Shown: piece by piece, positions 37,373 through 47,462 of the stretch
How positions within the stretch are numbered: position 1 is the stretch's first letter
How the letters are laid out: each line of letters begins with the position of its first letter
NCBI GenBank assembly: GCA_963798465.1
Contig: CAWCTC010000001.1
Span: forward strand, 464,465 to 528,464
Reading direction: 5' to 3'
Source of the DNA: an uncultured bacterium
GTDB taxonomy: Bacteria > Patescibacteriota > Minisyncoccia > Phycocordibacterales > GWA1-40-21
Length of the DNA: 64,000 nucleotides
Translations under genes and position numbers: made by a program
Notes under the pieces: model-generated
The model's database searches: none
What the model was told of the DNA's origin: nothing
The model's input: only the letters and a program-made list of their open reading frames with translations

Positions 37373-40300
37373 GTGATTCCGAAAAATCAACAGAATGAAA
37401 AAACCCGCAAATATTTTGACGGACGGCGTCATCGGAGGAGAGCTCGAAAAAGAAATATTTCACCAAATTCAAAAAACCTCTTATTGATATCTCCGAATCT
37501 TGTCGATCATCAGATGAAATCATACAAGTGGCTTCTGAAAGAAGGCATTGCAGAAGTCTTCAAAGAATTTTCTCCGATCAAAGATTACGCCGACAAAAAA
37601 TTCGAATTGTCTTTCACAGGATTTGAAGTCGGCGATCCAAAATACGATGAGTTCCAAGCAAAAGAAAAAAAAATTTCCTACGAAGGACAAGCTCAAGGCA
37701 AAAGTAAAACTGAAGAATAGAACACTCGGTTCAGAAATAGAACAGGAAATTTTTCTTGTCGGATATTCCTATGATGACAGATCACGGCACTTTCATCATA
37801 AACGGTATTGAAAGAGTCATCGTTCCTCAGCTTGCAAGATCATACGGAATTTTCTTCACTTTAAACGATGCAAAAGGAAAAAATTTTTTCGGAGCAAAAA
37901 TCATTCCGGCCCGAGGAGCATGGCTTGAAATAGAATCCGAATCAGACGGCGCAATATATGTAAAAATAGACAAAAAGAGAAAATTCGCCATTTCTTCTCT
38001 TTTTCGCGTATTCGGTGCAAAAACAGATAAGGAAATTATTGATCTTTTCAAGGGTGATGAAGCGGCGCTCAAAAGTCATAGAAACAACAATTTTAAAAGA
38101 CCATGCAAAAACTCAGGATGATTCTTACGTTGAAATATACAAAAGGCTTAGAGACGGAGATCTTGCTGCGGTTGAAAATGCCAGAGAATATGTAAAATCA
38201 ATTTTCACCGCCGAAAGATACGACATTTCAAAAGTCGGAAGATTCAAATTCAACAAGAGATTTAAGAAGCCGATGGATGAAAAATCCTTGGAACAAAAAG
38301 CCATCATCGCCATTGAAGATCTTGTGACCATTATCAAAAAAATCGTTGAGCTCAACAATGATCCGGAAGCAGTAGAAGACGATATCGACCACTTAGGTTC
38401 AAGAAGAGTCCGATTTGTCGGAGAACTTATTGCAAGCAAAAATCAGAGTCGGCATGGCTCAGATGAAAAGAAATATTCAGGACAGAATGTCTACCGTTGA
38501 TCCGGATATCAAAATGCCGGTGCAATTCATTTCTGCGAGACCGCTGCAAGCAAGAATAAAAGAATTTTTCACGACAAACCAACTTTCGCAATTCATGGGA
38601 CAGACAAATATTCTTGAAGAAATTGAACATTTGAGAACGCTTTCAGCGCTTGGTCCGGGAGGTCTTACGAGAGAACGAGCCGGATTTGAAGTCCGTGACG
38701 TCCATCCTTCTCACTACGGAAGAGTTTGTCCTATTCACACTCCGGAAGGTCAGAACATCGGTCTTATCTTGCAACTTGCAACTTATGCAAGAATAAATGA
38801 TTTTGGAATGATTGAAACTCCTTATGCAAAAGTAAAAAATGGCGTAATCACCGGAGAAGTAAAATATTTCAATGCACTTGAGGAAGAAAATTTCAAAATC
38901 GCCCATCGGTGCAACGAATTATGATGAAAATGGAAAAATTATTGAAGAAGAAGTTGAGGTTCGTATGAACGGCGAACCGGCAACTTGTAAAAAGAGATGA
39001 AGTTGAACTCATCGACGTGTCGCGCAAACCAGGCATTTTCTATCGCCACTTCCATGATTCCTTTCTTGAATCACGATGATGCAAACAGAGCTCTCATGGG
39101 AACGAACATGCAGAAGCAGGCTGTTCCTTGTATTATTCCAGAAGCACCGCTTGTCGCAACAGGCATTGAAGAGGATGGCTGCAAGATATACAGGAAGAGT
39201 TATTTATGCCGAAGAAGAAGGAACGGTTTCTGCGGTTGATGCTTCAAGAATTGCAGTCAAATGTGCAAAAACGGAAAAGAAAAAGAATATAAGCTTGTTA
39301 ATTTTTCAAGAACAAACGGTTTTACTCCTTTCCACCAGAGACCGTCGGTAAATCTTGGACAAAAAGTAAAAAAAGGTGAATTGCTTGCCGATACTTCTTC
39401 TTCGGTAGGCGGAGAAATGGCAATCGGACAGAATGCTCTCGTTGCATTCATGACATGGAGCGGATCAAACTTTGAAGACGCAATCATTCTTTCCGAAAGA
39501 TTGGTAAAAGATAGCAAGTTTTCATCTAGTTCACATTGAGGAATTTGTCGTAAATGTCCGCGACACAAAACTCGGACCGGAAATCACAACTCACGATATT
39601 CCAAATGTCGGAGAAGCAAAATTAAAAGATCTTGGATGAAGATGGAATCGTCAGAATCGGAGCAGAAGTCATGCCTGGAGATATTCTTGTGGGTAAAATT
39701 ACGCCAAAAGGAGAAACTCAGCTTACTCCGGAAGAAAGACTTTTGAGTTCAATCTTCGGCGAAAAAGCCCGCGATGTAAAAGATACTTCAAAGAGACTTG
39801 AAACGCGGAAAGAGAGGAAGAGTAATTTCCGTAAAAGTTTTCTCACAGAGAAAACGGAGACAAGCTTGAAGCGGGAATCATAAAAAGAATTCATATTGAA
39901 GTCGCGCAACTCAGAAATATTTCTGTCGGAGACAAGCTCGCCGGAAGACACGGAAACAAAGGTGTCATCTCAAGAATTTTGCCTGTCGAAGATATGCCTT
40001 ATATGGCAGACGGCACGCCTGTGGATATCATTCTTACACCGCTTGGAGTTCCTTCCCGTATGAACTTCGGACAGATTCTTGAAATTCATCTTGGGACTTG
40101 CTGCCAATACACTTGGACTATCAGGCCATCGTTCCTCCATTTATGGGAGCAACCGATGAAGAAATAAAAGAAGAATTGAAAAAAGCCGGATTACAAGGAA
40201 AATGGAAAAATGAAACTTTTTGACGGAAGAACAGGCGAAGCATTTGAACAGGAAATTTCAGTCGGTTATATGTATATCTTGAAACTTCACCATGAAGTTG

Positions 40301-40631
40301 AAGACAAGATTCACATGAGATCAATCGGACCTTACTCGCATGATCACCCAGCAGCCACTCGGCGGAAGAGCGCAAGGAGGAGGACAGAGATTCGGAGAAA
40401 TGGAAGTCTGGGCACTTCTGGGTTACGGCGCCGCTTACACACTCCGCGAAATGCTTACAATCAAATCAGACGATATCGTCGGAAGATCAGCGGCTTTCGA
40501 TTCAATAGTCAAAGGAGAAAGCAATCAAACAGCCGAATCTGCCCGCTTCATTCAATGTGTTGCTGAACAGCTTGAGAGGTCTTGGACTTGATGTCGAACT
40601 CAAGAATGAAAAATTAGATGATGAAAAATAA
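37373..40631 (+). pseudogene. rpoB: DNA-directed RNA polymerase beta subunit, fragmented by many frameshifts
   Basis: Conserved blocks are spread over all three frames: [120 protein letters not shown]. The stop is TAA 40629-40631. The start is uncertain (GTG 37373 or ATG 37395). Confidence 0.92.
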
Positions 40632-40676
40632 GATGAAATACAAATATTGAAAGTCAAAAATATAATTTCAACAAAT

Positions 40677-46245: not shown

Positions 46246-46261
46246 TTTAAAATAAAATAAA

Positions 46262-47462
46262 ATGCCAAAAATAACAAAGAAAAAAATCAAAAAAGTTTCT
46301 AAAAGCAAAGCAAAGCCGGTAAAAAAATCAAAGGAAACTGTCAAAAAAATAAAAACTGTCAAATCAAAGCCGGTAAAAGTAACTTTAAAACAGAAGGAAC
46401 TTGATACAAAAGCCAATAGACTCATAGCGAAGGGAAAAGAGAGAGGATTTATCACTTATGATGAAATTTTGAAAGAATTTCCAAAAGTTGAGGATGATGT
46501 TATTTTTCTTGATGACCTTTATAATAAGCTTGTTGTCGCAGGAATCGACGTACTTGAAGGAGGCGGAATGCTTGAAGTTGACGATGAACAGCTTAAAAAA
46601 TATTCACTTATGGAAGTCGCTCACCAGATGCCGGTTATGATTCTATCCAGATTTATTTGAAAGAAATCGGACAATATCCGCTTATCAGTGCTTCAATGGA
46701 AAAAGATCTTGCAAGAAAAATTCAGCAGGAGATCATAGAAGCAAAAGGTCTTCTGGCAAAAGCAAACTTTCGACTCGTGGTTTCTATCGCAAAAAAATAT
46801 GTCGGGAGAAGCGCCGACCTTACACTTTTGGATTTGATTCAAGAAGGAAACTTGGTCTTTTCAAAGCTGTAGATAAATTTGATTGGACAAAAGGTTTTAA
46901 ATTTTCAACTTACGCAACTTGGTGGATTCGCCAAGCTATCACAAGAGCACTTGCAGACCAATCAAGAACAATTCGCGTTCCTGTTCACATGGTTGAAACA
47001 ATTGCAAAATACAAACAGGTTTACAGAAGACTTTCCCAAGATTTGGGCAGAGAACCTTTGTCCGAAGAAATCGCAACTGAAATGGGACTTGATGTAGATA
47101 AAGTTTATATGATTGAAAAAATCGACCAAGACACAATTTCTCTTGAAGCTCCAGTCGGAGATGATGATGACGGAAAATCAACTCTTGGAGATTTCGTTGC
47201 AGACGATAAAATACTTTCTCCGGATCAGGAATCTTCAAGAAGAATTCTTTCGGATCAAGTCAAAGAAATTTTGAACGACCTTTCACTCAAAGAAAGAAAA
47301 ATTCTTGAAATGAGACATGGATTGAATGATGGCATAACTCATACACTTGAAGAAGTCGGACTTGAATTCGGCGTTACAAGAGAAAGAATCAGACAGATTG
47401 AAGCAAAAGCTCATGAAAAAATAAGACAGCATGAAAAAATAAATAGACTCCAAAGCTATTAG
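46262..47462 (+). pseudogene. rpoD: RNA polymerase sigma factor RpoD, frameshifted
   Basis: Lys-rich N-terminus. Then [70 protein letters not shown]. At least four frame changes. Confidence 0.9.

Follow-up and report, generated by a model that had tools for sequence, protein, structure and literature searches.

A frame-broken rpoB-rpoC-dnaG-rpoD block in a deposited 733-kb contig very probably reflects a consensus blended from different lineages

Results

The window, by which we mean the whole analysed stretch of 64,000 nucleotides whose numbering is used throughout, carries on its plus strand the genes rpoB (37395–40631), rpoC (40684–44372), dnaG (44501–46245) and rpoD (46262–47462), in the order also found in its relatives. 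All four genes are recognisable and all four are broken in frame, as an earlier note on this DNA had described. A frameshift-aware protein-to-DNA alignment requires 20 frame changes in rpoB, 21 in rpoC, 6 in dnaG and 2 in rpoD. The three frames that had been reported for the start of rpoB are seen within its first ~100 nt, with one +1 shift near position 37445 and another near 37490. Neither a different genetic code nor stops that interrupt an otherwise unshifted frame describe this locus, since the reading frames do shift. The intact products of relatives measure 1071 (RpoB), 1224–1225 (RpoC), 579–581 (DnaG) and 400–429 (RpoD) amino acids, and the frameshift-corrected proteins of the window are full length and conserved. 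Rfam and tRNA scans gave no relevant match within the block.

The corrupted block spans positions 37421–47408 on the plus strand. It is delimited by the first and the last difference to contigs of the organism's own strain (L081 and L082), and was characterized by an indel catalogue and by a three-way comparison with L120, a GC-rich Paceibacteria lineage (GCA_964613715.1) that shares ~70% nucleotide identity with the own lineage. Relative to the nearest intact references the block contains 65 indels, namely 48 insertions and 17 deletions (about 3 to 1), of which 63 affect a single base. These are distributed over rpoB (24, comprising 22 insertions and 2 deletions), rpoC (27), dnaG (7), rpoD (4, two of which compensate each other) and the two intergenic spacers (3); the anomaly is a feature of a single DNA segment including its spacers and not of the individual genes. 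The two nonsense substitutions of the block both lie in rpoC, where they create TAA codons at 42594–42596 and 44316–44318. Indel density amounts to about 0.65% and the spacing of the indels is roughly exponential. The block further differs from the own lineage by ~630 substitutions at a local rate of 1–13%, and frameshift-corrected RpoB of the window is 91.4% identical to own-lineage RpoB. The frameshift storm that the earlier note had recognised in the four genes is thus borne out, whereas the substitutions had escaped it and the supposed confinement to these genes does not hold (see below).

As own-strain reference we employed the Logan assembly contigs of ERR11594402, a run that may differ from the read set of the deposited contig. 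At the locus of the block, the genes of the own strain are intact. In L081, which covers the same locus with the same flanks, rpoB is open over its first 363 codons, and in L082, likewise with the same locus and flanks, rpoC is intact over its 3′ 923 codons; between the two contigs, the own-strain sequence has a gap at 38492–41595. Own-strain dnaG (579 aa) and rpoD (400 aa) at this locus are intact as well. An independent assembly of the same strain hence lacks the anomalies, as would be anticipated for an artefact of mixed lineages. The left flank (34799–37420), which comprises the genes for an RRM protein, a hypothetical protein and an M29 peptidase, a spacer and the first 26 nt of rpoB, shows one mismatch and no indel compared to L081, and the right flank (47409–53051) shows no difference to L082. 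Altogether, the own-strain-verified sequence outside the damaged patches contains 1 mismatch and 0 indels in 18,764 nt. The flanking genes for the M29 aminopeptidase, the transglycosylase-like protein and the exonuclease are all intact, in agreement with the earlier description. The products of the broken open reading frames form singleton clusters that are recorded from the 732,962-bp NCBI/ENA contig alone and not from Logan. In an exact-sequence look-up of four intact proteins, i.e. own-strain RpoD and DnaG and related-lineage RpoB and RpoC, none was recorded on this 732,962-bp contig.

The edges of the block coincide with those of the sole segment that is syntenic with six more distant relatives, running from rpoB to rpoD, and its extent is therefore that of the region in which foreign DNA is collinear. 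Within the block, the degree of damage correlates weakly with cross-species conservation (rho 0.26, p 0.046), and we rejected the idea that damage simply tracks conservation on account of this weak correlation. The highly conserved ABC ATPase gene beside macB is clean, which argues that conservation alone is no predictor of the affected genes.

The substitutions in the block fall mainly on third codon positions and are mostly synonymous. Counted at codon positions 1, 2 and 3, respectively, rpoC has 24, 13 and 116 differences, rpoD 2, 1 and 26 and dnaG 22, 5 and 42, which for rpoC and rpoD corresponds to third-position shares of 116/153 and 26/29. L120 shares the window allele at 53% of the differences between the window and the own lineage, compared to 21–30% for eight natural control lineages that include one as GC-rich as L120. 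Of the 77 RpoB residues private to the window, 71 are used by other lineages, frequently as the majority state of the family, and some private residues require two or three base changes. The window allele is also that of the outgroup majority at 147 of 344 sites, with 77 ± 7 expected. The match to L120, the codon-position bias and the shared RpoB residues identify the variants as alleles of another natural lineage; the extra alleles in the block are foreign-lineage alleles. At most columns the own base is present, and a foreign base appears at roughly one in seven informative columns. Foreign alleles come in short runs, 122 of 173 consisting of a single site and the longest of five. Given that L120 is ~70% identical to the own lineage and accounts for only 53% of the window's differences, whatever lineage or lineages truly contributed are unsampled.

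A single natural donor lineage for the whole block was rejected, as no collection searched holds a sequence closer than the own lineage. A comparison of corrected RpoB with 5.8 billion protein clusters yielded best representatives at 89% identity, none being closer than the own lineage with its 91.4%, and every member of the RpoB 90% cluster is more distant than the own lineage. GTDB representatives and JGI metagenomes likewise contained none closer than the own lineage, which matches the block at 91.4% also on the DNA level. An exact window-specific 26-mer had 0 matches in JGI metagenomes, and a relaxed pattern search retrieved distant bacteria alone (65–68% identity). A mosaic of the own strain and a co-occurring lineage at 92% average nucleotide identity (ANI; L083–L092) was discarded too because most differences are private to the window with respect to both.

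Over half of the inserted bases correspond to alleles of a foreign lineage. For 25 of the 46 single-base insertions examined in this way, the inserted base equals what L120 carries at the immediately neighbouring site and stands beside the own allele (null 7.9 ± 2.6, maximum 18), and 26 of 47 insertions supply a base that would be synonymous at the neighbouring third codon position (null 15.3 ± 3.2). Own and foreign alleles are hence interleaved at the scale of single sites and both are emitted at some columns, which is what a mixture of lineages predicts. About 45% of the insertions and all 17 deletions are without explanation by the L120 allele. The indels do not concentrate in homopolymer runs as homopolymer-type long-read error would have them: 10 of 47 insertions adjoin an identical base and 3 lie within runs of at least three. 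No shared motif, slippery context, homopolymer or spacing signal was found around the indel sites. We also refuted the notion that indels adjoin substituted foreign alleles, their median distance to them being 13 nt and thus greater than the 7 nt for random positions. The link between indels and foreign alleles is therefore the inserted base itself and not proximity to substituted alleles.

Damage extends to further genes of the window, contrary to the confinement that had been proposed. The macB/FtsX permease gene (31767–32992, plus strand) contains six single-base insertions and one deletion between 31959 and 32913, resulting in seven frameshifts. The own-strain contigs bracket this patch, ending at 31873 and restarting at 32999. 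Own-strain MacB is absent from its 90% cluster, so that the macB patch was assessed against the 92%-ANI lineage and L120 only. The bacA/uppP gene (59776–60583, minus strand) appears to harbor five single-base insertions within 75 nt (59909–59981). In pyrG, encoding CTP synthase (57545–59247, minus strand), a 2-nt insertion at 57643–57644 near the 3′ end shortens the open reading frame to 544 aa, compared to 557–567 aa in relatives. A stand-alone ABC-ATPase domain gene (370–960, plus strand) shows one frame change near position 640, which may be either an artefact or a real pseudogene; the own-strain contig L095 begins at 1113 and thus past this gene.

Discussion

We consider it very probable that the segment 37421–47408 is a consensus-calling artefact of the deposited 733-kb contig, in which the organism's own lineage and a GC-richer lineage were blended, and the small patches in macB, bacA and pyrG probably share this origin. 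The consensus evidence in the affected stretches would have been drawn from at least two lineages, the organism itself and at least one GC-richer Paceibacteria lineage resembling L120. If the own base won at most columns and a foreign base at about one in seven of the informative ones, natural-looking and mostly synonymous substitutions would result, and where both bases were written, presumably at several dozen columns, +1 frameshifts would follow. The genes rpoB, rpoC, dnaG and rpoD would be hit as a unit because no other segment here is collinear between these lineages, so that foreign DNA could be aligned along the whole 10 kb and not beyond. For the step at which the mixing occurred, which we infer, candidates are a long-read metagenome assembler that collapsed an inter-genome repeat, cross-mapped reads used for polishing, and homology-guided polishing with reference genomes. 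Among the causes offered in the earlier note, a consensus from a strain mixture is the one that the data support, with the refinement that the second contributor appears to be a fairly distant GC-rich lineage and not a strain.

That an ordinary, unpolished low-coverage long-read patch with random errors and no second lineage accounts for the block alone, as had also been considered, appears unlikely to us. Indel density and near-exponential spacing do resemble residual consensus error, the flanks are perfect as though polished, and the insertions and deletions left over by the L120 allele would find a source, and random long-read error may indeed account for a minority of the events. Random error, however, predicts neither a third-position bias with mostly synonymous, lineage-specific substitutions, nor multi-base codon changes to residues of other lineages, nor the raised match to L120 over the control lineages. 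Nanopore consensus errors are typically homopolymer deletions, whereas the indels here avoid homopolymers and insertions outnumber deletions about threefold. Even less probable is a real decayed copy of the operon with a functional copy elsewhere, or descent from a dying or non-viable cell lineage. The sequence does sit in a deposited 733-kb contig, but the own-strain contigs carry this locus intact between identical flanks, so that the decay would have to be extremely recent despite ~630 substitutions and 65 indels. The substitutions are moreover under purifying selection and not neutral or relaxed, and insertions prevail, although bacterial pseudogenes, as Mira, Ochman and Moran are said to have found in 2001, are deletion-biased. 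The look-up by exact sequence found none of the four intact proteins on the 732,962-bp contig, and decay does not predict inserted bases that equal foreign-lineage alleles of the adjacent site. The intact own-strain locus, the excess of insertions and the purifying selection speak against the dead extra copy suggested before, and nothing in the data points to the degraded template that had been suggested alongside it.

Natural recombination, in which an rpoB–rpoD segment was imported from a divergent lineage to give a real hybrid locus, would account for the L120-like alleles and for the sharp boundaries inside rpoB and rpoD. We nonetheless regard it as very unlikely because own and foreign alleles alternate site by site without conversion tracts, four essential genes with 65 indels and two stop codons would give a non-functional product, the locus is intact between identical flanks in the own strain, and the hybrid haplotype occurs in none of the collections searched. 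Fainter still is the chance that a real DNA molecule underlies the scattered hybrid, e.g. from an abortive recombination between two Paceibacteria lineages that diverge by roughly 10–30%. Patchy mismatch repair of a long heteroduplex could then have interleaved the alleles, unrepaired loops could have been fixed as single-base insertions, and the molecule might come from a non-viable cell or from extracellular DNA. Programmed recoding by ribosomal +1 frameshifting, transcriptional slippage or RNA editing fits the fact that most events are +1, and also the conserved, full-length corrected proteins. Its probability is nevertheless close to nil: the sites share no motif or slippery context and avoid homopolymers, they are absent in the own strain and in all relatives, deletions, 2-nt events, nonsense codons and indels in spacers occur as well, and foreign alleles account for the inserted bases.

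A mixed-lineage consensus has its closest counterpart in collapsed haplotypes and inter-genome repeats. The assembler Flye merges genomes that resemble each other into consensus contigs, and in long-read metagenome assemblies frameshifts and missing marker genes result from indels (PMC8302730). As in such cases, a shared segment seems to have given one consensus from mixed lineages, conserved marker genes are frameshifted by indels, and flanks unique to one genome are clean. Collapsed haplotypes differ from the present case in that they concern strains or species at about 98–99% identity, whereas our best proxy L120 is only about 70% identical, which argues that the true contributor is closer or that foreign sequence entered by another route. 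How DNA as divergent as L120 would come into a pileup is a difficulty for reading the block as a mixed-lineage artefact, and so are the insertions and deletions that the L120 allele leaves over, the weak correlation with conservation, the distance of the indels from substituted foreign alleles and the clean ABC ATPase gene beside macB.

Homology-guided polishers of the Homopolish type use related reference genomes. Mis-polishing by such a tool or by cross-mapped reads resembles our case in that hits are confined to alignable conserved genes (rpoB, rpoC, rpoD, pyrG and ABC transporter genes) and in that the own backbone persists at most sites with family-typical foreign alleles at a minority, but the conserved ABC ATPase gene beside macB is untouched here. 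To our knowledge, and on the basis of a limited literature search, a consensus with both alleles side by side has not been described explicitly. Pseudogene clusters in the reduced genomes of symbionts similarly show several frameshifts in recognisable genes; in contrast, the genes here are essential and unbroken at the same locus of the own strain, insertions predominate among the indels and include foreign alleles, and selection is purifying. Frameshifted genes and truncated proteins in long-read metagenome-assembled genomes (MAGs) are also known from residual homopolymer indels in nanopore-only assemblies (PMC9262707), with the difference that few insertions in the block touch an identical base (10 of 47, with 3 in runs of at least three), that few genes rather than the whole genome are affected, and that lineage-specific substitutions occur alongside.

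There is no new biology in the block; as an almost certain assembly artefact it is an error to be flagged and no discovery. A public and apparently near-complete 733-kb genome of the candidate phyla radiation (CPR) carries corrupted rpoB, rpoC, dnaG and rpoD and damaged macB, bacA and pyrG. Gene calling turns these into dozens of fragment "proteins", which protein collections already list as singleton clusters. A phylogeny built on these markers would position a hybrid sequence, estimates of completeness and contamination would be distorted and pseudogene counts for the lineage inflated, which upholds the earlier warning about marker extraction and completeness. The comparison used here amounts to a diagnostic that manages without reads and needs two references, an intact sequence from a close relative and a second one from further away. 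It asks whether an inserted base equals what the foreign lineage has at the neighbouring site, and whether one foreign lineage shares more of the differences than natural controls do; other long-read MAGs could be screened in this way.

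Frameshifts in the rpoB-rpoC-dnaG-rpoD genes

The window has a GC content of about 35% and derives from a CPR/Patescibacteria genome of the Paceibacteria type; among reference genomes, its central RpoC fragment has its closest relatives in Paceibacteria and Zambryskiibacteria-like MAGs. By exact look-up, the proteins of the window trace to a single 732,962-bp contig in NCBI and ENA (the source contig). In ORF lists and translations of three frames, positions 37.3-47.5 kb fall apart into short ORFs in alternating frames that read as RpoB, RpoC, DnaG and RpoD, with three frames used within the first ~100 nt of rpoB and with intact genes on either side. 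The core observation of the earlier note, four genes broken but recognizable, is correct. The same gene order is common to relatives, in which the four proteins are intact (1071, 1224-1225, 579-581 and 400-429 aa, respectively). Frameshift-aware protein-to-DNA alignment required 20 frame changes in rpoB, 21 in rpoC, 6 in dnaG and 2 in rpoD, mostly +1. A nucleotide catalogue, made against the nearest intact sequence chosen per segment, lists 48 insertions and 17 deletions, 65 indels in all and 63 of them single-base, which fall into rpoB (24), rpoC (27), dnaG (7), rpoD (4) and two spacers (3 together). Besides its indels, rpoC carries two nonsense substitutions.

The same locus in the own strain

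We compared the window with Logan contigs from ERR11594402 that are near-identical to it in the flanks and are referred to as the own strain. Contig L081 matches positions 34799-37420 with 1 mismatch in 2,622 nt, and from position 37421, 26 nt into rpoB, it is about 13% divergent with indels; its rpoB is open over the first 363 codons. From the other side, contig L082 shows no difference over 5.6 kb from position 53051 back to 47409 and differs by 1-10% inside the block, where its rpoD (400 aa), its dnaG (579 aa) and the 923 codons of rpoC that it covers are intact. The own-strain locus is intact. Four further own-strain contigs are 100% identical to the window elsewhere, and all own-strain-compared sequence outside the block and the smaller damaged patches described below (18,764 nt) contains 1 mismatch and no indel. 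The Logan contigs end at positions 38492 (L081), 41595 (L082), 31873 (L093), 1113 (L095) and 21285 (L096), in or beside rpoB, rpoC, macB, an ABC ATPase gene and an efflux-pump gene at 21131. Such ends at conserved genes fit assembly-graph tangles caused by k-mers common to several related lineages of the sample.

Source of the substitutions and inserted bases

The earlier note missed that the block also carries substitutions. Relative to the own strain, these are mostly synonymous and fall on codon positions 1, 2 and 3 in numbers of 24/13/116 in rpoC, 2/1/26 in rpoD and 22/5/42 in dnaG. Third-position bias and synonymy imply that they arose in functional genes and represent neither noise nor a decaying pseudogene. 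The majority are private to the window against both the own strain and a sister lineage at 92% ANI, yet outgroups share the window allele well beyond chance: it is the outgroup majority base at 147 of 344 sites, compared with 77 ± 7 expected. Away from frameshift sites, 71 of 77 private RpoB residues occur in natural homologues. Often the residue in the window is that of the family majority and the own-lineage residue is rare; some changes require 2-3 base substitutions. Own lineage and window are 91.4% identical in both RpoB protein and block DNA, and searches of protein clusters, genomes and metagenomes found no natural sequence nearer to the window version than the own lineage.

One homologue (P0052) matches 60 of 91 private residues; its locus, L120, lies in the GC-rich Paceibacteria assembly GCA_964613715.1 (rpoB GC 53%, compared with 38% in the own type and 41% in the window). 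At 486 of the 632 sites differing between window and own lineage L120 also departs from the latter, and at 338 of those it has exactly the window base. This match to L120 among differences from the own type amounts to 53% for the window and 21-30% for eight natural control lineages, one of them as GC-rich as L120. The own allele is retained in the window at a further 2,152 positions that distinguish L120 from the own lineage. The foreign alleles are dispersed: of 173 runs, 122 comprise a single site and the longest has five. Neither tracts left by recombination nor a plain chimeric joint would look like this. L120 is only a proxy for the second contributor: its identity to the own lineage is ~70%, and it accounts for 53% of the differences.

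More than half of the inserted bases are foreign too. Inserted bases are 68% G/C in a region of 38% GC and avoid homopolymers (10 of 47 touch an identical base); indel spacing is approximately exponential, and no flanking motif was found at the indels of the block catalogue. In 26 of 47 cases (null 15.3 ± 3.2) the inserted base would serve as a synonymous replacement at the neighbouring third codon position. Most telling, 25 of 46 insertions match the L120 allele of the immediately neighbouring site and differ from the own allele there (null 7.9 ± 2.6, maximum 18 in 2000 randomisations). At position 38907, for example, own CAT-GGT and L120 CAC-GGT meet as CAT[C]GGT in the window; at 41913, CTT-CCA and CTG-CCG as CTT[G]CCA; and at 43032, CAT-AAG and CAT-CAA as CAT[C]AAG. 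Over half of the "frameshifts" are thus columns where the consensus took in a base from each lineage, while the L120 allele accounts for neither ~45% of the insertions nor any deletion.

Origin of the corrupted block

Synteny with six more distant relatives covers rpoB-rpoC-dnaG-rpoD and does not extend to the genes on either side; collinearity of the foreign DNA with this genome is limited to the rpoB-rpoD block. The boundaries of the corrupted segment (37421-47408) match this, as it sits just within the syntenic block, spacers included. Damage correlates weakly with cross-species conservation. We consider it very probable that the block is a consensus artefact of the own lineage and one or more L120-like lineages, and the small patches probably have the same origin. 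Own sequence would have been mixed with that of the L120-like lineage(s) during consensus building, candidate steps being a collapsed inter-genome repeat in long-read metagenome assembly, cross-mapped-read polishing or homology-guided polishing. Flye collapses similar genomes into one, and long-read metagenome assemblies suffer indel frameshifts (PMC8302730), as also documented elsewhere (PMC9262707). The strain-mixture consensus suggested in the earlier note is supported and refined, with L120-like lineage(s) as contributor and both alleles written at many insertion sites.

Plain sequencing error in an unpolished long-read patch, also proposed there, is improbable, as it fails on codon-position bias, lineage specificity and homopolymer avoidance. 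Even less credit goes to a real dead copy of the operon, because the own strain has an intact locus between identical flanks, insertions outnumber deletions and the substitutions bear the mark of purifying selection; an exact-sequence look-up found none of the four intact proteins recorded on the source contig. Natural recombination is very improbable, given alleles interleaved site by site and the loss of function it would cause in four essential genes. Programmed recoding seems scarcely conceivable with neither conserved sites nor motifs and with deletions, stop codons and spacer indels also occurring. The frameshift storm is real in the deposited sequence, yet almost certainly an artefact of low biological interest; its practical value lies in flagging the record and in a diagnostic that needs no reads.

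Damaged patches outside the block

The storm is not confined to four genes. The macB/FtsX gene (31767-32992) has 7 frameshifts; own-strain contigs, ending at 31873 and resuming at 32999, bracket the damaged patch, and about half of its insertions equal the adjacent L120 allele, as in the block. In bacA/uppP (59776-60583), five single-base insertions lie inside 75 nt; nucleotide divergence from the sister lineage is ~23%, compared with 2-5% in neighbouring genes, which suggests natural allele replacement or more consensus blending on top of the insertions. pyrG carries a 2-nt insertion and an ABC ATPase gene one frame change, while ~35 other window genes are clean when tested against a related lineage.

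In other public sister-lineage assemblies, too, these genes are interrupted or of unusual length (L083 18699-20418; L085 5515-8793; L086 5515-8879; L089 2935-6150), with dnaG split into 405 + 186 aa and rpoB split into 513 + 603 or 922 + 139 aa or called at 1092 aa; the rpoB-rpoD locus may be error-prone across several metagenome assemblies. Intact proteins of 216, 494 and 459 aa at 21131-23267 and 54547-55926 are recorded from the NCBI/ENA source contig only, with no record in the Logan assembly of the own strain. Free of frameshifts and 99-100% identical to their sister-lineage counterparts, they may carry a few substituted alleles or simply be unassembled in Logan.

Other features of the window

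Between dus and dnaX, 959 nt (10364-11322) lack an ORF of at least 110 aa, and the corresponding interval of relatives holds just one of 56 aa. An Rfam scan at gathering thresholds gave no match; the stretch could encode a non-coding RNA of divergent sequence or be a regulatory region. Between dnaB and recR, two perfect 26-nt inverted repeats (55945-55975 and 56286-56312; core GTCATTCCCGCGGAGGCGGGAATCCA and its reverse complement) enclose ~330 nt without a long ORF, and a third, similar copy lies at ~56325-56351. A 102-aa MazG-like gene found between dnaB and recR in relatives has no match in the window, and the repeat-bounded stretch (55945-56351) may have arisen when a small MITE-like element was inserted or replaced the gene. 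Directly upstream of dnaB, the window carries a 107-nt insertion (54440-54546) relative to the sister lineage (L097).
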